A stretch of 61,179 nucleotides of DNA from Candidatus Dojkabacteria bacterium (GCA_026415655.1 JAOAGR010000010.1:1-61179), one strand, 5' to 3'; positions 3,158-61,179 are shown, counted from the stretch's first letter. The notes: generated from the sequence alone by a model not told the origin. Numbers and translations: made by a program.

Positions 3158-3772
3158 TTAATCAAATCCAAAAAGCTTTTGAAATATGCCTTTTATACCT
3201 TTTTGTGGTTTTTCTTCTTCGGCAAAAGGATCGTTTATATAGACATGTTGTTGATTTGTGGATGTATCTGGAGAGCTAACTTCATTACTTTGGAAGCTAT
3301 AATTATCTGATAAAGGATCGTAAGCAATGTTGTCTCTGCCGTATTGGTTGTTGAAAAATTCCTTATATTTTACTAACAGAGATTCTTGCTGTTGTACTTT
3401 ATTTTGGGCGATGGTGAGCTCTCTTATAGCGGAATCGAGCTTCATTATCATTGCATTGACATCTTTTGCTCTTTTTAATATTTCAGCATGTTCAGTGGAT
3501 TCATACATCATCTTAGCTATCTGGCTCTCTGTCAGATAGGTACTTGTAAGAAAATAATTAAGCCCATTAGGATCAGGATCACGCCCTAGAATAGTGCGAT
3601 AGAGTCTTTTTACCATCTCTTCGCGGCTTTCTGTACCTGTATTGGTGGTTGATGTGTTATAGTAATTTGTACTACTATTTTGACTAGTGTAAGTATATGT
3701 CGAATTGTTATTATTCGATGAATTGGATGTATATGAAGAATAACCGTAATTTGTCGTATTATTTGGATACAT
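3158..3772 (-). CDS. Hypothetical protein with N/S/T/Y low-complexity N-terminus and DUF4214-like segment
   Basis: VKRLYRTILGRDPDPNGLNYF resembles DUF4214. Confidence 0.5.
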   Translation of the reverse strand: MYPNNTTNYGYSSYTSNSSNNNNSTYTYTSQNSSTNYYNTSTTNTGTESREEMVKRLYRTILGRDPDPNGLNYFLTSTYLTESQIAKMMYESTEHAEILKRAKDVNAMIMKLDSAIRELTIAQNKVQQQESLLVKYKEFFNNQYGRDNIAYDPLSDNYSFQSNEVSSPDTSTNQQHVYINDPFAEEEKPQKGIKGIFQKLFGFD

Positions 3773-21019: not shown

Positions 21020-22963
21020 TTAAACATTAAATATCAATAATTTCGGTGAAATTACTCTGTTTTTTATGTTTACACCAAAATTGGCAATATTTTTGTTCAT
21101 GTAATATATATTTATAAAATAAATACCTGGATTCAAGGATGAATAAGAATAAAATACTCCGTATTGATCAGATTTCGTCTTATTTATTATTTCATTCTTT
21201 TGGTTACGAATGACGATGTCAGCACCAGCTATAGGTGTACCGTCTAAAAGACATAAAACCCCATTTATTGTATTTGGTATATTGATTAAATTACTTTCCA
21301 TGGGTATGTTAATGGCCACTGGCAAAGTTTCAAAATCATACACTTGTAAATCTTTTATATATTGATTACGAAGAGCTGGAGTTATCTGATAACGTTGGTT
21401 TGTAGTTTGAGAAGTAGTTAAGTTATTTGTCGAAACAGAATGATTTTGATTTGCTTGTGAATTTGGTTGTACCTGTATATATACATTGTTATCAGAAATA
21501 GTTTGTGTCTGGACATTCTGTTGTACATTTTGAGATGTATTTAAAGTAGAAGAGTTATTCGATTGTATCCCAGGACTAACAAGGTTTATATTAGTCTCTT
21601 CATTTTTATATGAATTTTCTGTCTTTAGATATTCAGGCTGTGATGATTGATCTTGTACATTATTTGAGATGGCATTTGTTTGTTGAGAATTTTGGGTGTT
21701 TTGAGAAATATTGGAAGTTATATTGTTTTGATTAGCATTTTGTTCTTGAGAAATAACGATATCGACCAAGGTATCATCGCTTGTTTTCGGTTTCATTGCA
21801 TCAAATTTATGTTGTGCACTTAAAACGGTAGCACTACTAGCATTGTTTATTGATATATCTACTAATTTATCAAACATAGAATTGGTATGAACAGGTAAAT
21901 TGTTTTTGCCACTGGCAGGTTCATTCGAACTAAAATTTAGATTAGGCTTAATCGAAGAACTAGTACTTGACTCTATTTTAAACAAGGAAGGATCATATTC
22001 ACCATCAAATACATCAGAATTAATATTTTGTTTTTGTGCTTTTTCTTCGGCTTCCTTTCTTTTTCTCTCAAGATATTCTTCATGATCAGCAGGAAATATA
22101 TTTATCGGCACGGGGTCTACGGGATCATATTCTATCTCTAATTGATTAAACAGTTTGCTCCTCTGATACACTTCTATATGGTATTTTCCTTTGGGATATT
22201 CCAATTTCGTTTGAAAATCACCGCTACTACCAGTATTCATCTCCTCCAATTCAACATTATCTTTGATTAATAATACAACCGCGTCTTTTACTGGTCTTGC
22301 TTCGTTGTCTTCGACGGTACCAATAATATAGCTTTTGACTTCGACATCATTTTCATTTTGTTTGTTTTCCTTAGTTATATATTTTACTTTTGGCTTCTGT
22401 GCTAAATTTGGTTGAGATTGTGATGCTAAGTTGTTTAGATTTACATTATTAAAAATAGAACTTGAGTTAATATTTGATGAATTTTGTACAGTCATATTAT
22501 TAATATTTACTTGAGTTTGTAAAAACTGTTGCTCAGCTACATCAAGATTGGTTGGTTGGGCATTAGCGTTATTTTGTTGTTGGAGAAGAAATTCTTCATC
22601 TTTTCCCTCTAATGGATCATACCCATATTGAAAAATACGAGCCTTTTCTGCAGCTGATTTTAGATAAAAACCTTTTTTGTGCCATACACGCCGTTGGGGA
22701 GAAACCATAGCCTCCAGATAATTTGAGACGAATACCTCGAAGGGTTCGCCATTAAACGGCACAAATATAACAATAATAGCTATGATTCCAATTACAAGAG
22801 GAATATAAATATTATATGGTGATGGCAACAACAAAAATAGTCCAATACATATAAAACCGACTATTGCAGCGGTAATAAATTGCTTTACTGTAAAAAGGTC
22901 AAACAATTTAAGTTCTACTTGCATTATATTTTGAGGTACAGGCCTGACACCATAAGTTGCCAT
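21020..22963 (-). CDS. PrgI-family protein with low-complexity linker and two beta-sandwich (carboxypeptidase-regulatory-like) domains
   Basis: PVPQNIMQVELKLFDLFTVKQF N-terminus, 2 TM helices, Q/N/S-rich middle, G..PI.GA.I.I...T..D..G.F repeats. Confidence 0.6.
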   Translation of the reverse strand: MATYGVRPVPQNIMQVELKLFDLFTVKQFITAAIVGFICIGLFLLLPSPYNIYIPLVIGIIAIIVIFVPFNGEPFEVFVSNYLEAMVSPQRRVWHKKGFYLKSAAEKARIFQYGYDPLEGKDEEFLLQQQNNANAQPTNLDVAEQQFLQTQVNINNMTVQNSSNINSSSIFNNVNLNNLASQSQPNLAQKPKVKYITKENKQNENDVEVKSYIIGTVEDNEARPVKDAVVLLIKDNVELEEMNTGSSGDFQTKLEYPKGKYHIEVYQRSKLFNQLEIEYDPVDPVPINIFPADHEEYLERKRKEAEEKAQKQNINSDVFDGEYDPSLFKIESSTSSSIKPNLNFSSNEPASGKNNLPVHTNSMFDKLVDISINNASSATVLSAQHKFDAMKPKTSDDTLVDIVISQEQNANQNNITSNISQNTQNSQQTNAISNNVQDQSSQPEYLKTENSYKNEETNINLVSPGIQSNNSSTLNTSQNVQQNVQTQTISDNNVYIQVQPNSQANQNHSVSTNNLTTSQTTNQRYQITPALRNQYIKDLQVYDFETLPVAINIPMESNLINIPNTINGVLCLLDGTPIAGADIVIRNQKNEIINKTKSDQYGVFYSYSSLNPGIYFINIYYMNKNIANFGVNIKNRVISPKLLIFNV

Positions 22964-44176: not shown

Positions 44177-45403
44177 ATGACTGACAAAAATTCACACAAT
44201 TCCCAATTCACAATCCCTAACGGTTGGGTAGAGACGACACTGGGGGAGGTGTGCGAGATAATAATGGGGCAATCCCCAAAGGGAGAAACTTATAATTTAG
44301 AGGGTAATGGTTTACCTTTTTATCAAGGTATAACAGAGTTTGATGAAAAATATGTAAAAATTAAAACTTACACATCAGAGCCAACAAAAGTTATAGAGCC
44401 AAATACAATTTTGTTTAGTGTTCGTGCTCCAGTTGGAAGGGTAAATTTTACAAAACACAAGTCTTGTATTGGTCGTGGAAATGCAGGCTTGAAAATGAAT
44501 AATGGAAATCAAGAATTTTTATTTTATTTATTGAGATTCTTAGAAAAGCAAATACAAAATAGAACTTCTGGAACTGTTTTTGATTCAATTAGTGGCAAAG
44601 AATTAAAAGAAATCACAATAATTGTTCCAACAAATCCAAACGAACAAAAAGCTATCGCCTCTGTCCTCTCAGCTTTTGACGATAAAATTGAGCTTTTGAG
44701 AGAACAAAACAAAACACTGGAAGAGATCGGACAGACAATTTTTAAGGAGTGGTTTGGGAAATATTCACCAGAAAGACCTGAAGAGTTGCCAGAAGGATGG
44801 AGAGTTGGGAAGTTGGGAGAAGAATTTGATATTACAATCGGAAGGACTCCACCAAGAGCAGAATCTCAATGGTTTTCAGATACACCAACAAGTAAAAAAT
44901 GGATTTCGATAAAAGATATTGTAAATAGTGGAACATACATTTTTAATAGTTCAGAATACTTAACGGATGAAGCAATAGAAAAATTTAATATTCCAATTAT
45001 CCCAGAAAATACAACTATTTTGAGTTTTAAAATGACTGTTGGAAAACTAACAATTACAACTGAAGAAATGCTTTCAAATGAAGCAATAGCACATTTAAAA
45101 TTGAAAAATGATTCTGTTTTGAGCTCAGAATTTATTTATTTATGTTTAAAAAATTTAAATTTCAATGCACTTGGTAGTACTTCATCAATTGTAACGGCTA
45201 TCAATTCAACAATGATAAAAAATCTTGAAGTTATTATTCCATATCATGAAACTATGAAAAAATTTGACGAAGCGATTCAGCCAATTTTTGCTAAAATAAA
45301 AGATAATTCAGAACAAATCCAAACCCTCGCTCGCACTCGTGATACACTGTTGCCGAAATTGATGAAGGGTGAGTTGAGGGTAAGTGGGTTTGGTAATAAT
45401 TAG
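44177..45403 (+). CDS. hsdS: Type I R-M specificity subunit (two TRDs)
   Basis: IPNGWVETTLGEV, EQKAIASVLSAFDDKIEL central helix, LARTRDTLLPKLMKGE. Confidence 0.93.
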   Translation: MTDKNSHNSQFTIPNGWVETTLGEVCEIIMGQSPKGETYNLEGNGLPFYQGITEFDEKYVKIKTYTSEPTKVIEPNTILFSVRAPVGRVNFTKHKSCIGRGNAGLKMNNGNQEFLFYLLRFLEKQIQNRTSGTVFDSISGKELKEITIIVPTNPNEQKAIASVLSAFDDKIELLREQNKTLEEIGQTIFKEWFGKYSPERPEELPEGWRVGKLGEEFDITIGRTPPRAESQWFSDTPTSKKWISIKDIVNSGTYIFNSSEYLTDEAIEKFNIPIIPENTTILSFKMTVGKLTITTEEMLSNEAIAHLKLKNDSVLSSEFIYLCLKNLNFNALGSTSSIVTAINSTMIKNLEVIIPYHETMKKFDEAIQPIFAKIKDNSEQIQTLARTRDTLLPKLMKGELRVSGFGNN

Positions 45404-45435
45404 GGATTTGATTATGATAAAACAGAATAAAAATT

Positions 45436-45460
45436 GTAAAGACGCGTTGCAATGCGTCTC
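45436..45460. repeat. Degenerate REP-like palindrome
   Basis: GTAAAGACGCGTTGCAATGCGTCTC. Confidence 0.65.
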
Positions 45461-45896
45461 GAAAAAACATGGGCGATGCATCTCAAGAAATAGACATTAC
45501 ATCTCGAAATATAGGCATTTCGTACCTATAGATAGGCAATCTGTCCCCACGAAAAGCGAACCAGCCGAAAAATTCCAAAACAAATACCGCATACAGTCAA
45601 CCAGATTAAAAGGATATGATTATTCACAAAACGGGGCGTATTTTATCACCATTTGCACCAAAAACCGTGAACGTTTTTTCGGGGAAATTTACAACTGAAA
45701 AATGATATTGTCGGAAATGGGTAAAATTGTCGTCAATGAATGGATAAAAACCCCAGAAATACGAAAATATGTAAAATTGGGGGAATGGGTAATAATGCCA
45801 AATCATTTTCATGCAATTGTAATTTTAAATAATGAATATGATGATTATAACAATGACAATGACGATAACGGTGATGGTAACGGTAACGGTGACGAC

Positions 45897-45924
45897 GTAG
45901 AGACGCATTGCTATGCGTCTCTAC
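45897..45924. repeat. GTAG-type REP palindrome inside the RAYT ORF
   Basis: GTAGAGACGCA-TTGCTA-TGCGTCTCTAC, perfect 11-bp inverted arms. Confidence 0.85.
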
Positions 45925-45932
45925 GGAATAAA

Positions 45933-46037
45933 AATGCGTCTCTACAAAATAACAATGCGCCTCTACAAAATGACCATGCGTCTCTGCAAAATGACCATGC
46001 GTCCCAACATAACGGCAATGCGTCTCTACAGAATAAC
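45933..46037 (+). repeat. About five 21-nt tandem repeats derived from the REP right arm
   Basis: Units like AATGCGTCTCTACAAAATAAC encoding NASLQNN variants. Confidence 0.75.
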
Positions 46038-46332
46038 AACAATAATGCGTTTTCAAACCATAATAACGACAATGCATCATTATATAATTGCAACGAATAT
46101 AAAAACAAATTTGGGCCACAATCAAAAAATTTATCTGCAATTGTTCGTGGATTTAAAGGTGCAGCAACAAAACAAATTCATTTATTAGGATTTTCCAATT
46201 TTTCATGGCAATCAAGATTTTATGAACACATCATCAGAAATGAAAAAGAATATTATCGTATTGCTGAATATATCATCAACAATCCTCTAAATTGGAAAAC
46301 TGATGATTATTTTATAATTTAATAACTTTACT

Positions 46333-49300
46333 ATGCCTACACTAAACGAATCACAAATAGAACAAATCTTGATAGGTTTGCTAAAATCACAAGGCTACGA
46401 ACATTTTTACGGTCCGGACATTGCTCCATATTCTTCTAATCCCCAAAGAGAAAGTTTTGCTTCTGTAGTGTTTGAAAGTCATCTGAAAGAATCATTAAAA
46501 AGACTCAATCCTGATGTGCCAGAATCTGTCAGACACGAAGCCTACCAGCACATTATCAAGCTTGAATCATCGGACCTTATGGATAATAATGAAAAGTTCC
46601 ATAACTACCTAACAGATGGAATCAATGTAGAATATTTCAAAGATGGAAACAGCAAAGGAATAAATGTTCGATTACTTGACCTTGAGAATATATCAAATAA
46701 TAGCTTTTGGGTAGTCAATCAATTTGTCATCAAGGAATCATCCACTTTAGGGGAAAGAGGGGCTGAAAAAAGACTTGATGTTGTAATCTTCGTCAATGGG
46801 CTTCCTTTAGTTGTTATAGAACTAAAAAGTCCAATTGATGAAAAAGCAACACTTGAAAAAGCCTATACACAAATCCAAAACTACAAAAAAGCTATTCCAA
46901 GTATTTTTTACTACAATGCACTTTGCATTATTTCTGATGGGATAGATGCCAGAGTTTCGTCTGTTTCTGCACCGTTCTCTCGCTTTCTTCCCTGAAAATC
47001 ACCCGAAAAAAGTGAAAATAGCAAACTGCCGGAAATCAAAATCATGGCAGAAAGAATGCTAAATAAAGAAGTGTTGCTTCGCCTTATCAGATACAACACA
47101 GTATTTGAACAAGAAGAGATAAAAGATGAAAAAACAGGGCTTTTTTCGGTTGTAAAAGTCAAAAAAATCGCAGCTTATCATCAATATTATGCAGTAGAAA
47201 AGGCTGTAAAAGAAACACTTAGAGCTACACATGAAAAGGAAGGAAATAGAAAGATAGGTGTAGTATGGCACACACAAGGATCAGGAAAATCACTTTCAAT
47301 GGTTTTTTATACTGGGCAAATCGTCGTCCATCCAGAAATGAAAAATCCAACCATCGTAGTTTTGACTGACAGAAACGACCTTGATAATCAGCTTTTCACC
47401 ACTTTTGGAAATTGTAAGCAATTGCTTAGACAAACTCCAGTCCAAGCAGAAAGTAGAGAACATTTAAAAGAATTATTGAAAGTAGCAGGTGGTGGGATAA
47501 TTTTCACCACTATACAAAAATTTGCTCCTACCGAGGGAAATGTTTATGAAACACTATCGGAGAGAACAAATATTGTGGTTATTGCAGATGAAGCCCATCG
47601 CAGCCAGTATGGATTTAAGGGTAGAGTTATCGAAACAGAAGATGGATCAGAAATTAGATATGGAAACGCAAAGTATGTAAGAGATGCTCTACCAAATGCA
47701 TCATTTATTGGCTTTACCGGCACTCCAATAGAAAAAGAGGACAAATCCACTAGAGGCGTTTTTGGTGATGAAATAGATATTTATGATATAAAGCAAGCTG
47801 TAGATGATGGAGCAACAGTGCCAATTAGTTTCGAATCAAGACTTGTAAAAATTAAGCTTAACGATAAAGTCGTCGGTAAAATAGACTATGCAATTGATGA
47901 AATTGAAGGCGCAACTCCGGAACAAATAGAAAAGGCCAAACGAAAAAACGCCCAAATAGATGCAATCGTCGGGCATCCAGACAGATTAAAAGATATTGCA
48001 AACGATTTAGTTACACACTTTGAAGCAAGACAAAAAGCCTTTGAAGGTAAAGCAATGATTGTATGTATGACCAGACAAATTGCGGTCAATCTCTATCAAG
48101 AAATAATAAAACTTCGTCCAGAGTGGCACAATGAAGATCTAATGAAAGGCACAATTAAAGTTGTTATGACTTCTAGTAGTGATGATCCAGAAAGTTTTCA
48201 ACCACATCATACGAGCAAAGAAGACAGAAAGAAACTTGCAGTGAGATTCAAAGATCCAAACGATGAATTAAAAATTGTAATTGTTCAGTCCATGTGGCTT
48301 ACTGGTTTTGATGTGCCTTGTTTGCATACGATGTATATTGATAAAAAAATGCAAGGTGCAAATCTGATGCAAGCCATTGCTCGTGTCAATCGTGTGTATA
48401 AAGACAAACCCGGCGGACTAATTGTTGATTATATTGGTATTGGACAAGATCTAAGGGATGCAATGGCTGTTTATATTCAAAGTGGTGGCGAAGGCTAAGC
48501 AGTGCTTGATATTGAAGAAATTATTAAAGAGATGAAAACGAAGTTTGAGATTGTAGAGCAGATGTTTCATGGATTTGAATATAAAAGATATTTTAAAGTG
48601 GATAATAGTGAAAAACTAAAAATTTTACTCGATGCAACAAACTTTATTTTGAAGAATGAAAACCTAAAAAATAAATTTCTTTCTGAAGTTATGGCCCTTT
48701 CAAAACTTTATGCAATGGCAGTTCCTAGTTATGAATCACAAGTAATAAGAGACGAAGTGGCATTTTTCCAAGCTGTAAAATCTCGTATAAATAAATTTAC
48801 TCCAAGTGGGGGTAAATCAGATAAACAAGTAGAAACAGTAATAAAACAAATAGTTGATGAAGCTTTGGCCAGTGATGGAATAGTTGATATTTTTGAAGCA
48901 GCAGGAATCAAAACCCCGACAGTGGGCATTTTGTCAGATGAATTTTTGCTTGAAATCAAAAACATGGAGCAAAAAAATCTTACTTTTGAACTTTTAAAAA
49001 AATTAATCAGCGATGAAATAAGAATAAGAAAAAAAAGAAATTTGGCACAAGGAAAAAAGTTCAGTGAAATGCTCCAAAATGCTATTAAAAGATATCACAA
49101 TAACCAAATAGACTCAACTCAGATCATTCAAGAATTATGTGAAATTGCTCGTGAAATGAAACTAGAAGACAAAAAGGCGGAAGACTTAGGACTTACCCCA
49201 GAAGAATATGCATTTTACTGCATTCTTGCAAAAAATGAATCAACAAAATTTTTAGAGGATCACAAAATGAAAGAACTGATCCATGTAATAGTTGATACAA

Positions 49301-49476
49301 TTCGCAAAAATGCAACGATAGATTGGGAAAAAAGAGAAGATGTAAGAGCAAAACTTCGTTTAACTGTTAAAAAAATACTAATGAGATATGGTTATCCACC
49401 AGATCTTGCAAAAATTGAAGCGGAGAGAGTCATTGAACAAAGCGAATTATTTGCAGCTGAACTAATAAACCAATAA
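46333..49476 (+). pseudogene. hsdR: Type I R-M restriction subunit with in-frame TGA (46993-46995) and TAA (48496-48498)
   Basis: LDVVIFVNGLPLVVIELK nuclease motif, [32 protein letters not shown]; all three ORF pieces share one frame. Confidence 0.9.
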
Positions 49477-50790: not shown

Positions 50791-53127
50791 ATGGTAAATT
50801 TAAAATTCATATTCAAGATTATTTTTTTTCCTTACAGGTTGTATATTATCCGCTATAATATTTATATCAAATAATCCTGACCAAATAGTACTTGCCAATC
50901 CAAATGCTTTCAAAATCACAGTAAAGACAAATAATCCTGGATCTAGTGCAAGTAATCAGTTTACAATACCTACTACAGGTGGAGGATATAATTATAATGT
51001 AGATTGTAATGGAGATGGTACAAATGAATACATAAATCAGACTGGCAATGTGACATGTACATATTCATCCCCAGGTACATATCAAATATGGATAACAGGG
51101 ACATTTCCAAGAATATACTTTGACGACACCGGAGACAAATTAAAGTTATTATCTATAGATCAATGGGGAAATATAGTATGGCAAAGCATGGAAAGTTCAT
51201 TTTCCGGATGTTCAAACATGGTATTAAATGCCACTGACGTACCGAATCTGTCTAATGTGTACAGTATGGCACTCATGTTTGCTAACGCCACATCTTTAAC
51301 GACTAATTCTGCGATGAGTTCTTGGAATACTAGTAATGTTCAAGATATGGGCGGAATGTTCGCTGGAGCCACATCATTTAATCAGCCAATAGGCTCTTGG
51401 AATACTAGCAATGTTCAGGATATGAGTTACATGTTTTATGGAGCCACTTCATTTAATCAACCAATAGGTTCTTGGAATACAAGTAATGTTCAATATATGA
51501 ATGGAATGTTTTCTGAGGCCACTTCATTTAATCAGCCAATAGGTTCTTGGAATACAAGTAATGTCATAGATATGTATGAAATGTTTTTAGAAGCTACGTC
51601 ATTTAACCAACCAATAGGTTCTTGGAATACTAGCAATGTTCAGGATATGAGTTACATGTTTTATGGAGCCACTTCATTTAATCAACCAATAGGCTCTTGG
51701 AATACTAGCAATGTTCAGGATATGGGTGCAATGTTTTATGGGGCTACATCATTTAATCAACCAATAGGCTCTTGGAATACTAGCAATGTTCAGAATATGA
51801 GTTACATGTTTTATGGAGCCACTTCATTTAATCAGTCTATAGGTTCTTGGAATATAAGTAATGTCATTAATATGTTATATATGTTAAGCAATTCGAACAT
51901 AGATGTTAATAATTATGATGCTACACTAACTGGTTGGGCTTCACAATCTGTTCAGCCGAATCTCGTTTTAGGAGCAAATGGATTAAAATATGGATTAAAA
52001 TATTGTAGTGCTGTTTCAGCTAGAAATACATTAATAAACGCACCCAATAATTGGACAATAAATGGAGATACACTTGATTGTGCTCCAACTGTTACAAATG
52101 TTACTTCTTCCACACCCGATGGAACATATGGAATAGGAAATACAATATTCATTCAGATTCAATTTAGCGAATTAGTAAATGTAACAGGTACGCCAACATT
52201 AGCTTTAAATAGTGGAGGTAGTGCAACATATACTTCGGGATCTGGAAGTAACACATTGACATTCACATATACTGTGGCATCGGGACATAATAGTGCAGAT
52301 TTAGATTATGTGAACGTCAATGCTTTATCTTTATCAGGGGAAGTATAAAAGATTCAGGAATGAATAATGCTGTATTAACTTTACCAACGCCAGGAAGTGC
52401 AAATTCGCTTGGAGGTAATAAAAATATAGTCATAAATACAACGTCATCTCCATCTCCTTCTCCATCTCCTTCTCCATCCCCAACACCTACACTTAATCCA
52501 TCCCTTACTACTACTCCATCTCCAACTACTGGTGATATTAATCCTTTAATAGTTATATACGGTTTGTATCCGGCATCGAATAACAACGGAATAGTATATA
52601 TAACCACAAACACTCCTTTCAAAATGATTATCTCGCAAAGTAAATCGGGTAACGCACCATATAATTATGAATTCAAAGGTGTATGTTCAGGTACATCTAA
52701 TAACAGTTCATCAACTTCGTTTCTATCGAATAGTATTAGCATCAAAGATCCTGGTGAATATATATGTATAGCTAAAGTAATAGATTCAGACGGTGATAGT
52801 GCAATAGAGTCAGTTAAGATTATTGCTATGAGTGAAACTCCTGTCGCTACCAACATGCCTACACCTACTCCAACATCTACTCCAACAATAGCTCCCACGT
52901 CACCAGATACAACGGAAAAAACTATTACACCCAGTCCAACAACTAATAATGAGTTAGAAGTAACCGAAACGAATCCAATTGACACTACAACGACAACGAA
53001 CACGGCCGAATCTAAGAATAATAGTCAACAAAATAATCCATTTAATTTTTGGTTGCTGTTGATACCGATAATTTTGATATTGATTGCATTATTTGGATAC
53101 TGGTATTATAAAAGGGAAAATAAATGA
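50791..53127 (+). CDS. BspA/DUF285-like surface protein with 25-aa repeats, Ig-like segment, P/S/T linkers and C-terminal TM; two apparent frameshifts (T8 50822-50829, G4 52337-52340)
   Basis: ORFs 51050-52348 and 52360-53127 join if single indels are corrected; ATG 50791 then gives a signal peptide ([17 protein letters not shown]...). Confidence 0.75.
51320..51880 (+). repeat. Seven full plus one partial 75-bp tandem repeats
   Basis: [25 protein letters not shown] units; first at 51320, eighth at 51845 (7 x 75 bp). Confidence 0.92.
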
Positions 53128-53178: not shown

Positions 53179-53442
53179 TTATGGATGAGAATGTGGTCTC
53201 CACCGAATAATTCCACGGTTATCACGTCTTACTTCGACCGCACATTCATTATCATCATCAAGCACTAGTATTTCGGGTATGTCTATTTCATCCGGTTGAC
53301 GATCAAAAAATGATACTGTAGATCCTTTCAGTCCTCTTATTTCATATTCGATTCTGATAACTTCTTGAGGTCCATAACGAAGACATAGGAACTCTAATAT
53401 TATTTTTAATAAACAAGGATGACTAAGACATAGCATCTTCAC
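53179..53442 (-). CDS. Hypothetical protein
   Basis: 87-aa ORF only. Confidence 0.35.
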   Translation of the reverse strand: MKMLCLSHPCLLKIILEFLCLRYGPQEVIRIEYEIRGLKGSTVSFFDRQPDEIDIPEILVLDDDNECAVEVRRDNRGIIRWRPHSHP

Positions 53443-53457
53443 ATTAAAAAGATGAAA

Positions 53458-54651
53458 TTAGTTATCAAAAATACAATCCTTACCTGGTGGTCTTTTACTA
53501 TAAACAAAAAACAAAAGAAAACAATTAGGCAGTAAAAACCTATCTATAAGATTAGAAGCTGCCGACCACCAATATGACAGGTGAATTAATAAAAATAGAA
53601 TAGAACAAATCAAAATAAATATTTCTAATCTTGTCTTCCACGGCCTTACGAAAAATAATAAGTATACGAAAAAAGCATAAGAGGGTATTAGTTTCCATAC
53701 ATTAACCAGAAGATATGACAATGAAAATGAACTAGACTCTGCAAAACCATATAATGATTGCTTATAAGCCACGTTATTTGGTGAATTTATAGATTCCCAC
53801 CACACGTATCCATTAAAAAAAATACTTCCCGAGACCCAATAATTCCATAAAATTTGTGGAATATATACTATAAATACACCCAGGAATAGAAAAAAAACTT
53901 TTTTATATCTTTTGAGAAGACTAAATCTAGAACTATAGGAAGTAATAATATAACAGAGGTTGTTCTAATAAGAATCGTTGCCCCAAAAAGGAAGCCTAGT
54001 AAAATAAAATTTAAAATTTGCTTTTGGAATAGCGTTTTTACAGAATTAGATTTAAGCCTATAATAAAAGTGATAGCTAAGTAACAAAAATAAAATTGCTA
54101 AAGGTTCTGATAGCGGAACTAATCCTAAAAAGTTATATTTTAGTAAAGGATCCACCGCAAATAATATATTGTTAAAATAATAAAATGCAATGATCAGAAA
54201 GAGAATAAGAGATTTTTTATAATTTAGACGACGAAAAATAAGAAAAAAAATCGCAGGAACGATTATAAATGCCTGTATAAAAATCACCTCATCCATAATC
54301 ATTCGCCAATCATTTGTGAAATTTTCTAAAATAATAAATGGCATATAAAATGCCGGATATCCCAAAGTATAGGGATATTTAGCATTTTCACCGGCTAAAA
54401 TGTTGTAAGCCAATTCAAACATATAGTCTTTGATCTCCGAAATTTTCCAAAATCTGGGACTCGAATAACCATGAGCCATTTTGTGATAAAAGAAAAATAT
54501 TGATTAATAAGACAAATGCAACGACGCAATAAGCAATGCGGTTACGAATTAATCTGCTTTTCAAACTATTAAACAAAGACTTAAGTTTCATATTATTAGG
54601 TATTATAATATCTAATTTTGAATAAGAAAATATATTTTGAATAATGCTCAA
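53458..54651 (-). pseudogene. GT-C/PMT-like membrane glycosyltransferase split into three ORFs by frameshifts
   Basis: GDQRLY...YTLGYP, LSEPLAILFLL, LIRTTS pieces join across indels near 54420, 53890 and 53825. Confidence 0.6.
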
Positions 54652-54667
54652 ATAAGATCAAATTATT

Positions 54668-55408
54668 ATGAAAAAGTTATCGATAATAATGCCCGCGTAC
54701 AATGAGGAAAAAACTCTGAGGGCTATAGTAGAGAAAGTGATTGAAGTGAAACTACCTGATGGATTTGAAAAAGAGATTATTATAGTTAACGATTGTTCAA
54801 AAGACAAAACGAAAGAGATAGCCGAAGAATTGGCAAAAACCTATAATAACATTATTTTGACAAATAACCCTCAGAACATGGGCAAGAGCCAATCTGTACG
54901 AAATGGTATCTTAAAATCTACTGGCGATGTAGTGATTATTCAAGACGCTGATTTAGAATATGAGCCGAGCGACTTTGCAGAAATGTTAAAAATGATGATA
55001 GAAAACGGATATGACGTTGTGTATGGAAATAGATTTGGCAGATCAAACAAAGTAATATATTGGCAAAATTACTTTGGAAATTTATTTTTATCCTTCATAT
55101 CAAATATATTTACTTTCCCACGTATCAAAACATATATTCCAGATATGGAAGTTTGTTATAAAATGGTCAGAGGTGATGTATTACGCGAGATTGCTCAAAA
55201 TATAACTTCAAAAAGCAATTTTGGTTTTGAACCCGAAGTAACAGCAAAACTATCAAAATACAAAATCACCGGAAGACCTCTTAAATTTGGCATATATCCG
55301 ATTTATTATTATGCGAGATCCATAGCTGATGGTAAAAAAATGAAAGCTATTGAAGATGGTATAAAAGCATTAAAAGAGATTGTTCATTATAATATTATTG
55401 ATAAATAA
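54668..55408 (+). CDS. Glycosyltransferase family 2 (polyprenol-phosphate glycosyltransferase-like)
   Basis: SIIMPAYNE, VNDCSKD, IQDADLEY, FGFEPEVTA. Confidence 0.92.
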   Translation: MKKLSIIMPAYNEEKTLRAIVEKVIEVKLPDGFEKEIIIVNDCSKDKTKEIAEELAKTYNNIILTNNPQNMGKSQSVRNGILKSTGDVVIIQDADLEYEPSDFAEMLKMMIENGYDVVYGNRFGRSNKVIYWQNYFGNLFLSFISNIFTFPRIKTYIPDMEVCYKMVRGDVLREIAQNITSKSNFGFEPEVTAKLSKYKITGRPLKFGIYPIYYYARSIADGKKMKAIEDGIKALKEIVHYNIIDK

Positions 55409-55555
55409 GTTATATAGATTTTACTCATAAAATAACTACAATTTTGGGCTGAAAATTTATTTAACAATATTCGGTTCTACAAATTATTATTTGTCTCTTT
55501 TGTTGGTACAAGTCAGCAATACCTTAGATAAACAAAGCATTATCTAATTAGCAAA

Positions 55556-57046
55556 CTAACACTGAATTATAATATTAGTTTTGTAAATACTTTTGTTTAT
55601 TACAATAAGGGAAATAGCATTTAACTCATACAATGATAGATTTTTACTGTTACAAAATTCATTTTTACTCAAAATATTTTCTTTTTGATTCAGAATTTCT
55701 GCTTTATATTCATTAAAAAATCCATTAGATGTATTTCTATTCACATGCCTAAGTCCATAGACTTCTGCATATAAGGCATTAAGATTACGCAAAAACACAG
55801 GAAATTCTTCTTTTCCCCGATCTATCACTACAGATAAAGGATAAGAACCTATAGAATTCGTATTGTCTAAACTCAAAATTATTCTTTCTGAGTTAGATAA
55901 AGGTATTAAATTACCAAAAAGTGCATGTGATGTACTAAAATACGAAGGGTAGAAAAACAAAATAAATATTACAACTAATTTAAAGATACTTCCCAATTTT
56001 ATATTATTTTTAATATCGAGTATGATTTTTATCATTAAACCAAATAATGGATATACAAACGGGAATAGATAAATCAAAAATCTTCTATCATTCCATTCAT
56101 ACAATACTATCCAAAAAACTAAGGTTATGATGCTACTGATTATCATAAATAAAAAAAGCTTTTTATCTACTTGGATTTTCTGATTAAAAATATAAAACAA
56201 AGGCAATATAAAAATAATCAAACCAAATACGCTAAATGAGTTGATAAAATAATAAAGCATCGAATTAAAATTTGGATCAATTAACTGAAATTGCATTTGC
56301 ATTACACTCGTGTATAAAGGGTCTCCATATCGAAACCATTTGTATAAAAGATATATACCATTAGGCAATGCAAATATAAGACCATTTATAGCCAAATTTT
56401 TTAAGATATTAATCACATATTTTTTTTCCAACCTTGGTTTACTAATCAAAAACATATAGATAACCCAAGCTGGTATCAGAAATGGTGAAAAATTTTGGAA
56501 AGTCCAAGAAATCCCAAGCAACAAAAATGAAATCTTACAATTATTATTCACAAGATAATAAAAGGCCATCACAATTAATGTCATTGCATACAAATCAGCA
56601 AGTATCAACAGGCTAAAACTCTGAATAAAATAATTCCACATAAGAACTAAAACTATAAAATAAGAAATAAATCTATTTTGCAGTAAATGATAAGTTATCC
56701 TAAAAATATAAAGGAGAAATAAACCAAGAACAATCTGATTTAATAATGGGAGCAAGTATAATATCTTGAGATTGTATAACATATGAATTATTAAAGACAA
56801 AGCAGGTTGACGCACAGATGTTTCATTAGAATCGAAAAAACGTATTCCATTTGCCAGCCAATCGAAGCTATCAGGAGTAAAAAATTTGTAGTTTGACAAA
56901 AATAATTCTTGGTCTAAAGGGGTAGCTAAATAAAATTTGATAAACAATAAAATAAATATTAACGACCAGAAAAATATTCCATAGTATCGTAGAGCAAAAG
57001 ACATTATATTTTTTTTAGAAAGTATCAGCATGACTTTTAGTTTCAT
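55556..57046 (-). CDS. Multi-pass membrane protein, GT-C-like
   Basis: TPDSFDW acidic motif after TM1, about 11 TM helices, WNDRRFLIY. Confidence 0.6.
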   Translation of the reverse strand: MKLKVMLILSKKNIMSFALRYYGIFFWSLIFILLFIKFYLATPLDQELFLSNYKFFTPDSFDWLANGIRFFDSNETSVRQPALSLIIHMLYNLKILYLLPLLNQIVLGLFLLYIFRITYHLLQNRFISYFIVLVLMWNYFIQSFSLLILADLYAMTLIVMAFYYLVNNNCKISFLLLGISWTFQNFSPFLIPAWVIYMFLISKPRLEKKYVINILKNLAINGLIFALPNGIYLLYKWFRYGDPLYTSVMQMQFQLIDPNFNSMLYYFINSFSVFGLIIFILPLFYIFNQKIQVDKKLFLFMIISSIITLVFWIVLYEWNDRRFLIYLFPFVYPLFGLMIKIILDIKNNIKLGSIFKLVVIFILFFYPSYFSTSHALFGNLIPLSNSERIILSLDNTNSIGSYPLSVVIDRGKEEFPVFLRNLNALYAEVYGLRHVNRNTSNGFFNEYKAEILNQKENILSKNEFCNSKNLSLYELNAISLIVINKSIYKTNIIIQC

Positions 57047-57166
57047 TATACAGCAATTATATCAATTAGATAGTTAATATGTTACCACCAATGATTGTTA
57101 TTTTATTTTACATAAGTGTGTATTTGTGAAAATATATTTTTTGCAGTATAATTATAAATTATAAAA

Positions 57167-57604
57167 ATGTCGCAAGAATTAAGAGCAAACGCATCAAAAA
57201 TATTACAAGAAAATAAGGATACAATAGCACAAGTTGGTGGAGGAATATTATTGGGTGTGGCGTCTGCCGCTGGCCTTCCTTATCTTCAGGCACACATTCC
57301 AATTCTAACGTATGAATACGTTCCCATAACACCAATCCTTTTATTTATAGGATCAAAGGCATTTCTTTCTCTCAATAACAAATTTCATTTTGCAAGGCAT
57401 ATATCCCCAAGAGTAAATGACTGTTTTAACGGATTAAACCGGATACTTCCTCTATCTTTTGTACTGTCATTTGCTATATCTTATTTCGGTGTAGGTATGT
57501 ATACTTTAGATATATTTCCTGATTCCTGGTCATGGTTTTCTGATGATTTATTTAAACAAATTAAAGAGTTATTTCCTGAGTGGTTACAACCATTTATACC
57601 TTAA
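57167..57604 (+). CDS. Hypothetical membrane protein
   Basis: Three hydrophobic segments. Confidence 0.5.
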   Translation: MSQELRANASKILQENKDTIAQVGGGILLGVASAAGLPYLQAHIPILTYEYVPITPILLFIGSKAFLSLNNKFHFARHISPRVNDCFNGLNRILPLSFVLSFAISYFGVGMYTLDIFPDSWSWFSDDLFKQIKELFPEWLQPFIP

Positions 57605-57800
57605 TTGAATATATATAAAATTATTCACATAAAATTTTTTAAAATCAATATTACCTGCATTAGGTTCATTTGCGTCTTGTTTATTTATTTCAATATTGAT
57701 CATACGTAAGATAATCCAACATGTCAATCATAAAAAACGAAAAAGGAGATATTGTACATTATAAATTTTTAATTAATTTGTAATATTATATAATATTACA

Positions 57801-58298
57801 ATGGATTTAGATAAAAAAATCCAAATTTTAAAAAGTCTTGGCATAGATGAGGTAAGCATTGCCGAAACAGGTATCAATAAAACAATACTTATTACAAATC
57901 TTCTAAAGGTTGATACAGATAATCTTCGCAAAATGGTGGAATATATAATTGAAAAGCCAAAGCTTCGAAATCTTAGTGTATTAGATAAAGTCAAATATCT
58001 CGCTGGTATGATTAAGAATAATTCTCGAAATAAAATGCACTATGAAGATATTATTAAACAAAAAATTGAAAGTATTAAAAAATTAGGTGTCAATGAGGCA
58101 TCAATAGCAGAAGAAGGAATAAATAAAGTTCAATTATTTGTAAGTATTTCTAGTGTCGAACCTGAAGATCTTGAAAAAATGGTCGGTATAATTCTAAGAA
58201 AAAGAAAATTGGCAAACGCATCCTTACTCGATAAAGTTAAATATCTTATAGGAATGATAAAAAACTATAATATTGCTAAAAATATTAAGTTTGAATAA
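57801..58298 (+). CDS. Hypothetical protein made of two similar ~75-aa domains
   Basis: KSLGIDEVSIAETGINK...LDKVKYLAGMIKN versus KKLGVNEASIAEEGINK...LDKVKYLIGMIKN. Confidence 0.65.
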   Translation: MDLDKKIQILKSLGIDEVSIAETGINKTILITNLLKVDTDNLRKMVEYIIEKPKLRNLSVLDKVKYLAGMIKNNSRNKMHYEDIIKQKIESIKKLGVNEASIAEEGINKVQLFVSISSVEPEDLEKMVGIILRKRKLANASLLDKVKYLIGMIKNYNIAKNIKFE

Positions 58299-58329
58299 TA
58301 TAGTATTACATACGGTTTCTTAATAAAGA

Positions 58330-58965
58330 ATGTCAAAAGACAGTTGGATACAAGACGATTGGCTATGGTTTTGGGGGTACATCATAGATGGTGAAAAAGT
58401 ATGTAGAGATGGTACTTTTCGAAAACTAGTTATGAGTTATTTAGAACTAGGCTACACCCTAATCAACGGTCCAACAGTTCCGTTTGATGATCCTCAAAAT
58501 AAAATCACTGATCTTAATGACATAGAAAAAGCGATCACTCGTGCCTGCAATTTTGACCAACGAAATAATAAACTGGTATTTTGGCGTCCTTTATTTGAGT
58601 TTCGAATGAAACTGTATAATCATCCTACAAACGTGTTGCTATGGGTACTTGACACTGATCTTGATCTTATCTTGGGGCCCAACTATGATGCTGGCGAAAA
58701 AAACATTATGGAGTTTATCGATTTAATCGAAGTTGTGCTGGAGACTATACCTACTGATTTTGGTTGTCTATTTACAAAAGACTCTCCACCAGATGAAGAG
58801 GATGTCGTCGAAGGTAGGATTCCGAATGTCTATCCTATAACCTACTTTTCAAATAAATTAATCGAAAAATATAAAGAGCAAATTATTCGATTAGGACCTG
58901 AAATCAACATTGAGATCTGTAGGGGAAGGATGATAACACTAAGCATTAAAGGAATATTGAAATAG
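58330..58965 (+). CDS. Hypothetical acidic protein, possibly a toxin-immunity protein
   Basis: Acidic and aromatic-rich; PNVYPITYFS...E.I motif reminiscent of immunity families. Confidence 0.45.
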   Translation: MSKDSWIQDDWLWFWGYIIDGEKVCRDGTFRKLVMSYLELGYTLINGPTVPFDDPQNKITDLNDIEKAITRACNFDQRNNKLVFWRPLFEFRMKLYNHPTNVLLWVLDTDLDLILGPNYDAGEKNIMEFIDLIEVVLETIPTDFGCLFTKDSPPDEEDVVEGRIPNVYPITYFSNKLIEKYKEQIIRLGPEINIEICRGRMITLSIKGILK

Positions 58966-58966
58966 A

Positions 58967-59674
58967 CTATTTTTGATCACTTCTCCATTGTAATGGTGGA
59001 TATATCATAATAGGTATCCCCACCCTAGTTTGTAAAAATTCAAATAACTTTTTTCTCTTATTGAAATCCACATTGTTATATAACGCGTAATAAAGATCAA
59101 GCTTGTAATCATCGCCCCAATATCCTAGCTTTTCACGAGCATACAGATATGTATCAAAACTACCTGTGATGGGTATTTGTATTCCTGGTCTAAATTTGAA
59201 AGCTATACACAGAAACTCATTTTCATACACCTCAGGTAATAAAAAAAGATTAGCAGGAGCGTAGACTAATGTACCAATCTTTGACAATGTTCCAACAGCA
59301 TTTACTACACCAGGCATCATCATCTCTTGAATAGCGATAAATTCGAGATCGGAATATTGATATCGATATTTTTTACCATCAGCTGTATGGACCTCAAACC
59401 CTTGTAAATCAAAAACAACACCCGAATTACCTCTATTGAAAAAGAATTGAAGTATATAATACACAGGTCCCAACATACCAAAGCCTATTCCACATAGGCT
59501 AACAAGGAAGTTCTGATCATTAAAAGCCAAAATACCTATGAGAAAAGAAAGAAACGAGAAAAATGCGATAATTATTTTTGTCCAATCTGACTGGCGTAAG
59601 TCTATTGAGTTCATAATTGGCATAATAAGTAATGCGAAACATATTGTCAATTTGTAATCTTTGTCAACATACAA
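58967..59674 (-). CDS. Hypothetical membrane protein (start uncertain)
   Basis: Two to three N-terminal TM helices plus a soluble domain. Confidence 0.5.
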   Translation of the reverse strand: MYVDKDYKLTICFALLIMPIMNSIDLRQSDWTKIIIAFFSFLSFLIGILAFNDQNFLVSLCGIGFGMLGPVYYILQFFFNRGNSGVVFDLQGFEVHTADGKKYRYQYSDLEFIAIQEMMMPGVVNAVGTLSKIGTLVYAPANLFLLPEVYENEFLCIAFKFRPGIQIPITGSFDTYLYAREKLGYWGDDYKLDLYYALYNNVDFNKRKKLFEFLQTRVGIPIMIYPPLQWRSDQK

Positions 59675-59790
59675 AAAATAAACTTGACCACGGTAAAAAT
59701 TGATTATCGAATGTCAATATAGACAATATAGTGGAATTTTCTATTTTCAATCCGGCCACTCCAACAATGCCCTAGTCTCCTGAGAGTTGT

Positions 59791-59826
59791 GTTTTTATTC
59801 CCATATGTCCCAAGTTGTGGTAAATC
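59791..59826 (+). CRISPR. Isolated CRISPR repeat, 34/36 identical, degenerate 3' end (TAAATC versus TAAACT)
   Basis: GTTTTTATTCCCATATGTCCCAAGTTGTGGTAAATC. Confidence 0.9.
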
Positions 59827-59906
59827 TCCCGTTCTTTCCATATATCTTTTCCCTTTGAATAATATAGGTATAAAAATATACTTCATATTTTTACCAAGTC
59901 ACAGTA

Positions 59907-59915
59907 TGGTAAAAT
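59907..59915 (+). promoter_or_regulatory. Extended -10 promoter motif upstream of the HNH ORF
   Basis: TG-G-TAAAAT ending 13 nt before ATG 59929; context GTCACAGTATGGTAAAAT resembles the repeat 3' end. Confidence 0.5.
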
Positions 59916-59928
59916 TAACAAAACGACA

Positions 59929-60420
59929 ATGCCAATATGTCATTTTAGTTTCTCAGAATGGAAGGAACGACATTGCAATAGGCACCATGTGATCCCCCAG
60001 TATCTCGGAAGAAGAAATCCATTTTACACCGATTTTGTTGAAAACGAATACAATATACTACCCGCTCATATTACCGTACACATAAACATCCACGCCCTCG
60101 CACGTCGAATTATTCGTGAATTGCCTTTCCAAGGGCAAGAGGTACCTGTAGCATCTTTTTGGACCGTGACACAAAATTTACACAGATTCAGAGACCTTCC
60201 TCCTAACACAAGAGAAATGGTCCGCTCAAATCTCATAAACTGCCTAGGGAATTTGCAACGCAGTGGGTTGATGAGTGATATATCGGCCGAACACCCATGG
60301 TTTTTAAATTTCCAAGGTTTAGAGGAACTATTAAAAACAGAATGTGAAAGCATAGATTATAATGTTGTTTTTCCGAATTTATCGACATCGATTTTAATTT
60401 CTTACTCCAAAACACAATAA
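59929..60420 (+). CDS. HNH-motif protein between the isolated repeat and the array
   Basis: RHHVIPQYLG...ENEYNILPAHITVHINIH matches HHxxP...N...H...H. Confidence 0.6.
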   Translation: MPICHFSFSEWKERHCNRHHVIPQYLGRRNPFYTDFVENEYNILPAHITVHINIHALARRIIRELPFQGQEVPVASFWTVTQNLHRFRDLPPNTREMVRSNLINCLGNLQRSGLMSDISAEHPWFLNFQGLEELLKTECESIDYNVVFPNLSTSILISYSKTQ

Positions 60421-60580
60421 CATTACAATATGGTTTTAAGGGCATCCATAATCGATGAAGGACTACATAAACCCCAATTCGTCTATACAGATACTGTTAC
60501 TGTTAGTATAAACGATGTCGAATCACTGAGCTGTGCAACGGACTATTGCACTACTTGAGGTGATTATAAGCGCTGTTTTG

Positions 60581-60947
60581 GTTTTTATTCCCATATGTCC
60601 CAAGTTGTGGTAAACTATGTTCTGATAATAACCAAGAATATTACCAGTTTTTATTCCCATATGTCCCAAGTTATGGTAAACTAATAAATTGTTAGTACCA
60701 TCTGACAAATACGTTTTTATTCCCATATGTCCCAAGTTGTGGTAAACTTGATTTACCTTTCTAGATGTACAAAATTTGCGTTTTTATTCCCATATGTCCC
60801 AAGTTGTGGTAAACTCCAAAATTTGATGGTTTGATCACACCTATTGTTTTTATTCCCATATGTCCCAAGTTGTGGTAAACTTATTTCCTGGCTTATTTGA
60901 GACTTTAAACCGTTTTTATTCCCATATGTCCCAAGTTGTGGTAAACT
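60581..60947 (+). CRISPR. Type II-C-like CRISPR array: six 36-bp repeats, five spacers (30, 30, 31, 30, 30 bp)
   Basis: Repeat GTTTTTATTCCCATATGTCCCAAGTTGTGGTAAACT at 60581, 60647 (one G>A), 60713, 60780, 60846, 60912; resembles the Campylobacter jejuni II-C repeat at both ends. Confidence 0.95.
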
Positions 60948-60962
60948 CTACCACAACTTTTT
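60933..60962 (+). terminator. Hairpin formed by the last repeat and its flank, followed by a T run
   Basis: AAGTTGTGGTA-AACTC-TACCACAACTT then TTT. Confidence 0.5.
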
Positions 60963-61010: not shown

Positions 61011-61178
61011 CTAAAATAATGCACATTGCTTATCACTTATCAATTTTTCTTTTGGTTTAGTCTTACCTGTGATGATACGCATATACTTAAACTGTCTCTC
61101 CGTCAGTATCATAGCCCTTATAGCCCCTCTTTTGGGCGCATATCCTTCAAGTCGTTTCATATACTTATCTACCATAAC
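61011..61178 (-). CDS. cas2: CRISPR-associated Cas2, 3' part (truncated by window edge)
   Basis: Manual translation VMVDKYMKRLEGYAPKRGAIRAMILTERQFKYMRIITGKTKPKEKLISDKQCALF*, matching the type II Cas2 C-terminal pattern; next to the array. Confidence 0.8.
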   Translation of the reverse strand, partial: VMVDKYMKRLEGYAPKRGAIRAMILTERQFKYMRIITGKTKPKEKLISDKQCALF

Positions 61179-61179
61179 C

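Follow-up and report, generated by a model that had tools for sequence, protein, structure and literature searches.

An orphan cassette between two repeats at the cas-distal end of a type II-C-like CRISPR array from Candidatus Dojkabacteria

The CRISPR array described here lies close to one end of a contig from Candidatus Dojkabacteria bacterium (GCA_026415655.1 JAOAGR010000010.1:1-61179), and in place of its oldest spacer it holds a gene-sized block of DNA with an orphan open reading frame (ORF), ORF163. The window is the entire contig of 61,179 bp, and analyses of the contig cover that DNA. Its 36-nt repeat, GTTTTTATTCCCATATGTCCCAAGTTGTGGTAAACT, is present in seven copies, every one on the plus strand, with starts at 59791 (34/36 positions matching), 60581, 60647 (35/36), 60713, 60780, 60846 and 60912; the same search on shuffled sequence gave no match. 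Six copies form a regular array with five spacers (60581..60947, plus strand), in which the intervals between repeats measure 30, 30, 31, 30 and 30 nt. The remaining copy is isolated (59791..59826, plus strand) and constitutes a standalone repeat unit, separated from the regular array by the 754-bp block (59827..60580, plus strand). The repeat scan thus confirmed the arrangement given by the original prediction for this DNA, namely a 34/36 repeat copy at 59791 in array orientation, followed by 754 bp and by regular repeats from 60581. At the left junction, between isolated repeat and block, the sequence reads …GTGGTAAATC / TCCCGTTC…, and at the right junction, between block and first array repeat, …GCGCTGTTTTG / GTTTTTATT…. 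The isolated copy ends in TC where the consensus ends in CT and is otherwise unchanged; its 5' part, which pairs with trans-activating CRISPR RNA (tracrRNA), is intact, and its -10 hexamer reads TAAATC instead of TAAACT. On the opposite side of the array the contig stops within a cas2 gene, of which the 3' half (55 codons; 61011..61179, minus strand) remains.

The block has a GC content of 37.4%, compared to 31.3% for the contig, which places it in the top 3% of 754-nt windows. ORF163 (59929..60420, plus strand) encodes a protein of 163 aa and runs in the same direction as CRISPR RNA (crRNA) transcription. An ORF of such length arose in 13 of 20000 random 754-nt sequences with the composition of the block and in 2 of 20000 with the composition of the contig, which makes a chance origin of ORF163 very unlikely. 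Its GC content at third codon positions (GC3) is 36%, compared to 23.7 ± 3.7% in 44 host ORFs (maximum 33.5%), and its codon score of -0.02, against 0.148 ± 0.04 for the host, is still the best of the six frames; both values fall outside the range of the 44 host ORFs. Taken together, ORF163 probably is, or until recently was, a genuine coding sequence. A 42-aa ORF (60430..60558, plus strand) begins 9 nt past the stop codon of ORF163 and may represent a second cistron; it gave no family match and is absent from the protein collection. Between ORF163 and the first array repeat no terminator was found, which makes read-through into the array plausible.

Upstream of ORF163, an extended -10-like element, TGGTAAAAT (59908..59916, plus strand), ends 12 nt before the ATG. 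Genes elsewhere in the window have no Shine-Dalgarno sites, and TATAAT is often found 8-14 nt ahead of their ATG (e.g., at 3772, 36194, 57167 and 57801), a pattern that suggests widespread leaderless or very short-leader mRNAs. The position of TGGTAAAAT fits this short-leader or leaderless layout, and the element could serve as promoter of ORF163, which would then be expressible in its host. The block would accordingly be organized as a compact cassette, with an AT-rich promoter region of 100 nt containing the extended -10, followed by ORF163 and possibly by the 42-aa ORF. A degenerate repeat was considered at 59886-59916, just upstream of ORF163, and dismissed, since its score against the window repeat is reached by 1.9% of background windows; against the repeat of the related contig L027 the figure is 0.6%, before multiple-test correction. 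No other internal repeat remnant in the block was significant, and the region yielded neither an Rfam match nor a significant RNA structure.

Homologs of ORF163 were found neither among more than 15 billion proteins overall nor in 5.8 billion clusters. Three matches in a representative library of 1.84 billion proteins proved to be translated tandem repeats and were set aside as artefacts. Relatives of ORF163 are absent from IMG/VR, phages, plasmids and about 13 related arrays, the block as a whole was matched neither as DNA nor as protein in phages, plasmids, IMG/VR or the related loci, and a 23-mer taken from it does not occur in IMG/VR. Furthermore, the ORFs of the block are recorded in no assembly, the annotation of the source record included. 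A mobile element was rejected as the identity of the block, in which neither inverted ends nor a transposase or phage family were detected.

The original prediction had called ORF163 an HNH-motif gene, and the 163-aa ORF with HHVIPQ...N...H...H...H is indeed found at 59929-60420. The full string, HHVIPQ-(16)-N-(2)-N-(4)-H-(3)-H-(3)-H, is spaced like an HNH core, and HHVIPQ...NEYNILPAHITVHINIH reproduces, as a string pattern only, the spacing of catalytic His, Asn and metal-binding His. This part of the claim stands; the assignment to a nuclease family is not supported. The HNH-like string appeared in 43 of 100000 composition-preserving shuffles, with a pattern defined post hoc. Pfam searches at E <= 10 returned no HNH family for the full ORF163 or for two N-terminal fragments, and NCBIfam, PHROGs, PADLOC and PDB sequences contained nothing relevant. 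A fragment of the Cas9 HNH domain was also considered and rejected, as there is no similarity to the HNH region of the family Cas9. The absence of homologs left no alignment for modelling; in AlphaFold2 without alignment, the predicted local distance difference test (pLDDT) score was 36.0 when the full protein was modelled and 42.2 when the input was residues 1-80, which does not allow folds to be compared, and the sole predicted element is a helix at residues 44-64. Consequently, ORF163 is not recognisable as HNH nuclease, and this label, with the string motif as its one basis, is not supported.

To place the array, related arrays were retrieved with a looser pattern, i.e., the first bases of the repeat occurring twice at array spacing; the exact core of the window repeat is absent from the genome, metagenome and viral collections searched. 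The resulting family comprises about 13 arrays with about 140 repeats, on contigs of mostly 31-34% GC, and for two of the arrays the genome of origin bears the label Patescibacteria group or Candidatus Dojkabacteria, respectively. The repeats of the family have the 5' end GTTTTTATTCCC in common and the 3' ends TGCTATAAT, TGATATAAT, TGGTATAAT or TGGTAAACT, all of which are extended -10 sequences (family-wide TGnTATAAT or TGGTAAACT). The closest relatives are L027 and L029, and their repeats end in TGGTAAACT as those of the window do. With such an extended -10 embedded in the repeat, each spacer of the window should have its own promoter, as far as promoter activity can be judged from the motif. 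The order of related loci is tracrRNA, cas9, cas1, cas2, array, and the repeats are antisense to the cas genes. The related Cas9 proteins (1073-1117 aa) match PADLOC profiles with E values down to 1.5e-185 and contain Pfam HNH_4 and RuvC_III; neither csn2 nor cas4 was found in the related loci.

The cas2 fragment connects the window to this family. Its stop codon at 61011 lies 63 bp from the last repeat, it encodes the C-terminal half of Cas2 (TIGR01573, E=5e-4; PADLOC Cas2_II, E=2.3e-10), and type II Cas2 models are its best PADLOC profiles. Compared to Cas2 of the related II-C loci, it shows 36-47% identity (tblastn E values of 5e-15 to 1e-8). The window contains no other part of the adaptation module and no ORF longer than 677 aa; as the contig ends inside cas2, the genes cas1 and cas9 as well as the tracrRNA lie off this DNA. 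In the window itself we find 36-nt repeats, spacers of about 30 nt, an array antisense to the cas gene and a predicted promoter in each repeat. The assignment to a type II-C family is therefore supported, as judged from sequence comparison, and the label "type II-C-like", as well as the cas2 gene that had been assumed, held up: the relatives carry cas9-cas1-cas2 without csn2 and cas4, their Cas2 matches the window fragment, and cas2 is present as a minus-strand 3' fragment at 61011-61179. As a separate observation, the Cas2 C-terminus of the window has no protein record in any assembly, though neighbouring genes occur in 4-5 contigs, which hints that the stop of the contig inside cas2 reflects strain variation or a disruption of the cas operon in this lineage.

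The tracrRNA of the relatives provides a further family feature. An anti-repeat (23-29/36) is located directly upstream of cas9 on the same strand, and after it come AAGG, a GC hairpin and a terminator (L029 5301-5395; L041 310-405; L016 242; L056 91; L072 2416); the folds greatly exceed those of shuffled sequences in stability (z -5.4 and -4.3). In a duplex scan of the 61-kb contig no anti-repeat exceeded background, which is to be expected because the tracrRNA of the relatives adjoins cas9, here off the contig, and is thus no argument against II-C membership. A direct repeat copy transcribed antisense complements the crRNA repeat, and the isolated repeat was for this reason considered as a minus-strand anti-repeat. 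This candidate was rejected, as the minus strand downstream of it folds into nothing like a tracrRNA, with neither nexus nor terminator (z +0.45), and the family position of tracrRNA upstream of cas9 also opposes it. Two other anti-repeat candidates, one within the block at 59862-59876 (15 nt, 87% complementary) and one after the array at 60945 (22/36), were both at background level in duplex and alignment scans; for the latter a terminator or leader palindrome fits better.

Growth of the array at the cas2-proximal end, as the original prediction assumed, is borne out by the related arrays of L023 and L072, which have cas-distal spacers in common and differ in the spacers at the cas2 end. Arrays of this family thus grow at the cas2 side, and the block of the window occupies the oldest position. 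Spacer length is 29-31 nt across about 130 family spacers, without intermediate sizes, and neither an oversized interval nor a relative of the block was detected in the approximately 13 related arrays. Protospacers for the window spacers were not found in IMG/VR. Among the relatives, one spacer of L041 (reverse-strand position 6540) matches positions 952-981 of L011, a separate 1.3-kb metagenome contig, over 30/30 positions; L011 would be a protospacer or, alternatively, the L041 array assembled a further time. A tandem array whose units start with GTTTTTATTCCC also occurs in a Cyanobacteriota metagenome-assembled genome (MAG; L053 1593-2570). Its "spacers" are near-identical GCTGAGTGCTGA repeats, and it is a satellite-like repeat, not a CRISPR array.

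The isolated copy is most likely the cas-distal terminal repeat of the array and thus its outermost one. Two contigs from independent Logan assemblies, L001 and L002, agree with the window at 99.5-99.7% identity across 6.3 kb, and both terminate within the isolated repeat at window position 59820, precisely the point at which a k=31 graph has to branch in a repeat. As both reach into the isolated repeat, it holds the same chromosomal site in two other samples. In both contigs this repeat is adjoined by the same flanking orphan gene as in the window (58967..59614, minus strand; 215 aa as called in other assemblies, with the longest ORF extending to 59674), which forms the chromosomal border of the CRISPR locus and gave no family match in profile searches.

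Based on this anatomy, we favour the view that foreign DNA passively interrupts the oldest end of a type II-C array, and we give it about an even chance. About 0.75 kb of compositionally foreign DNA would have split the cas-distal end, leaving the copy at 59791 as the outermost repeat. Entry would most likely have occurred by illegitimate or repeat-mediated recombination at a repeat-spacer junction, with a breakpoint within the last two bases of the outer repeat, i.e., those that differ from the consensus. The view gains support from the report that standalone repeats in type II loci stem mostly from spurious repeat duplication or recombination (PMC10120712). Such an interruption would be tolerated because every repeat carries its own putative promoter, which should render the five remaining spacers independent of upstream transcription, and the oldest position of an array would be the least selected one. 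Nevertheless, several observations weigh against passive interruption. The block shows no terminal inverted repeats, no target duplication and no recognisable mobile-element gene, and both of its ends abut full-length repeats exactly, which an integrase-type event would give likewise. In all six relatives with a visible outer array end, degradation of the terminal repeat affects the 5' end, with a change at position 1 in every case, and leaves the promoter end intact; the isolated copy of the window reverses this pattern, with an intact 5' end and a changed -10 hexamer. The cas2 fragment has a similar composition (GC 36.6%, GC3 36%), so that the block may have belonged from the start to a CRISPR island gained by horizontal transfer, instead of having been inserted later. 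Finally, an empty-site or pre-insertion allele was not found, and the sole near-identical strains, L001 and L002, come from k-mer assemblies that break off within the isolated repeat.

The similar composition leads to an alternative in which the block is the original cas-distal flank of a CRISPR island, the copy at 59791 the product of an ectopic duplication or recombination involving a repeat 754 bp away, ORF163 a neighbouring gene of the island and the array itself free of any insertion. Block GC and GC3 also resemble those of a 211-aa neighbour, the isolated copy shows none of the 5' degradation typical of terminal repeats in the relatives, and spurious repeat duplication is reportedly the main source of type II standalone repeats (PMC10120712). 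However, the repeat at 60581 would then be the terminal one, and it is a 36/36 match, whereas position 1 is altered in 6/6 relatives; in addition, no relative has a homologous flank gene. We consider this alternative unlikely. Uptake of an oversized prespacer by Cas1-Cas2 at the leader end of the then young array, followed by five normal spacers, would account for the exact full-length direct repeats on both sides of the block, for its oldest position and for its foreign composition. However, the narrow spacer range of 29-31 nt in the family speaks against such a "giant spacer", as do the two deviating last bases of the left repeat, which are unlike a fresh repeat duplication, and we know of no type II integrase that accepts about 750 bp. 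Integration of an oversized fragment, one of the routes the original prediction offered, is possible in principle and not distinguishable from ordinary recombination, yet as uptake by Cas1-Cas2 we rate it improbable. The same slim chance is assigned to an assembly artefact, i.e., a repeat-flanked fragment of another strain or locus that was threaded into the array. It would be in line with a source that is a MAG contig ending inside cas2, with three independent k-mer assemblies breaking at the isolated repeat, and with block ORFs that no other assembly records although neighbouring genes are recorded. However, the repeat variant exactly at the junction (AAATC) is unique, a 36-nt repeat is shorter than ordinary reads and modern assembler k-mers, and even a misplaced block must have these repeats flanking it on some molecule.

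The remaining alternatives assign a function to the cassette. One might speculate that ORF163, with or without the 42-aa ORF, acts as toxin, addiction module, anti-CRISPR or regulator, and that its transcript is controlled or processed via the flanking repeats together with tracrRNA and Cas9. The shared direction of ORF163 and crRNA transcription, the repeat-like extended -10 (TGGTAAAAT), the missing terminator ahead of the first repeat and the retained tracrRNA-pairing part of the isolated repeat would suit such a module, and crRNA-like regulators beside arrays are known in other CRISPR types (PMC10120712). However, a CreTA-like or crRNA-like regulator needs a mini-array and a pseudo-spacer partly complementary to a promoter, and it is usually conserved across loci (PMC10120712). 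The window instead has a lone repeat with the next one 754 bp away, so a mini-array of repeat, pseudo-spacer and repeat is not present. In type II systems the guide is located on the 5' side of the repeat. For neither of the 30-mers in question, 59761-59790 ahead of the isolated repeat and 60551-60580 at the end of the block, does the contig offer a second site, even at the level of a 10-nt seed. Across the related loci (about 13 arrays) there is no isolated repeat with a gene, no extra repeat past the array and no relative of ORF163, and RNA folding and Rfam likewise gave nothing for this module. The analogy to CreTA drawn in the original prediction consequently lacks support, with one repeat, no guide-promoter complementarity in the contig and no conservation; nothing supports a functional tie between ORF163 and Cas9, and we regard the Cas9-linked module as very unlikely. 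Hardly better is our estimate for the wider notion that the cassette is either a true giant spacer or a working part of the CRISPR locus. As a working part it might serve for addiction or as a guard, or be a gene of the anti-CRISPR type; its transcription would start from a repeat-like extended -10, its mRNA would receive its 3' end through tracrRNA/RNase III processing at the first array repeat, and expression or stability would thereby depend on the presence of Cas9-tracrRNA. The least probable explanation, and in our view an extremely doubtful one, takes ORF163 for an HNH homing endonuclease to which CRISPR arrays offer a safe harbour. The spacing of the HNH-like string, rare among shuffles albeit under a post hoc pattern, argues for it; the empty searches of Pfam, NCBIfam, PHROGs, PADLOC and PDB, the lack of likeness to the HNH region of Cas9 and the unusable models argue against it. 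Moreover, a safe harbour requires homologs in other arrays, none of which were found, so that there is neither a sign of spread nor a copy at an equivalent site elsewhere, and this proposal of the original prediction is not supported.

Besides the cassette, the leader side of the array shows a conserved feature. Folding predicts a hairpin (60933..60959, plus strand) to which the last repeat contributes its 3' half and in which this half pairs with an inverted copy just downstream; a T run comes next. More precisely, the 10-12 nt ahead of the -10 box of the newest repeat recur in inverted form directly after that repeat, and the -10 hexamer forms the loop. The hairpin also occurs, with compensating sequence changes, in L027/L029, L023 and L007, and the array end of L016 is similar by eye. 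Its stems track the repeat: AAGTTGTGGTA/TACCACAACTT in the window, CTGTTATGG/CCATAACAG in L027, TCCGCTATGC/GCATAGCGGA in L023 and CCTGCTGTG/CACAGCAGG in L007. The structure could act as plus-strand terminator, as integrase cue at the leader-repeat junction, or both, and a leader-repeat palindrome that changes with the repeat may bear on the recognition of the integration site.

Other parts of the window are worth mentioning as well. Identity to L001 and L002 (99.5-99.7%) extends from 53500 to 59820, and upstream of it (window ~53400-53543) the strains carry different glycosyltransferase genes; a strain-variable glycosylation region thus adjoins the CRISPR locus. Genes for type I restriction-modification, namely the specificity subunit HsdS and a SWI2/SNF2 ATPase resembling HsdR, are found at 44177-49476, about 10 kb from the array. 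The region 51050-53127 encodes a surface-type protein with about eight tandem 'SWNTSNVxDMxxMF...ATSFNQPIG' repeats and, after it, a protein that is rich in Pro, Thr and Ser and has a membrane anchor at its C-terminus. At 21020-22963, a protein of 647 aa that begins with a PrgI-family domain forms part of a minus-strand gene cluster, which may encode a conjugation or type IV secretion-like apparatus.

What the cassette means depends on its nature. If it is a passenger, arrays with repeat-embedded promoters tolerate a gene-sized interruption at their oldest end and keep the remaining spacers. With a true coupling to Cas9, type II systems would have in it their first counterpart to the toxin or guard modules under CRISPR control, and true uptake by Cas1-Cas2 would be evidence that a type II adaptation complex integrates DNA of gene size. 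Independent of this, short His motifs such as that of ORF163 call for caution with HNH domain calls, and the comparison outlines a little-described type II-C family that is found partly in Patescibacteria and Dojkabacteria MAGs.

Compared to known systems, the array resembles the type II-C loci with repeat-embedded promoters of the Neisseria meningitidis and Campylobacter jejuni type, reportedly described by Zhang et al. and Dugar et al. in 2013. Both have 36-nt repeats, 30-nt spacers, an array antisense to the cas genes, an extended -10 at the repeat end and growth at the cas2 end, and the relatives share the order cas9-cas1-cas2 without csn2 and cas4. In contrast to that type, the family tracrRNA here lies directly upstream of cas9, and the leader side holds an inverted copy of the 3' half of the repeat. 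The CreTA/CreR modules of types I and V-A likewise combine an ectopic repeat with a small gene in a CRISPR locus; they differ from the window by their mini-array, guide-promoter complementarity and conservation, and a type II system requires tracrRNA and a guide 5' of the repeat. CRISPR arrays interrupted by mobile elements, e.g., by insertion sequences (IS), are known too. They match the present case in having hundreds of bp of non-spacer DNA with intact repeats on both sides, whereas the window block lacks transposase, inverted ends and target-site duplication and carries as payload an orphan ORF with a promoter-like element. Standalone repeats (PMC10120712), finally, are also repeat-like copies within the locus but outside the regular array and, like the isolated copy, probably derive from repeat recombination. 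Unlike those, the window has a single near-perfect repeat 754 bp off, with a gene-sized orphan cassette in between, without partner repeat or partly complementary target, and conserved only in strains of >99% identity. Taken together, nothing shows a new mechanism, and interrupted arrays and standalone repeats are both known already; an orphan cassette placed exactly between two type II-C repeats is an unusual variant of them.

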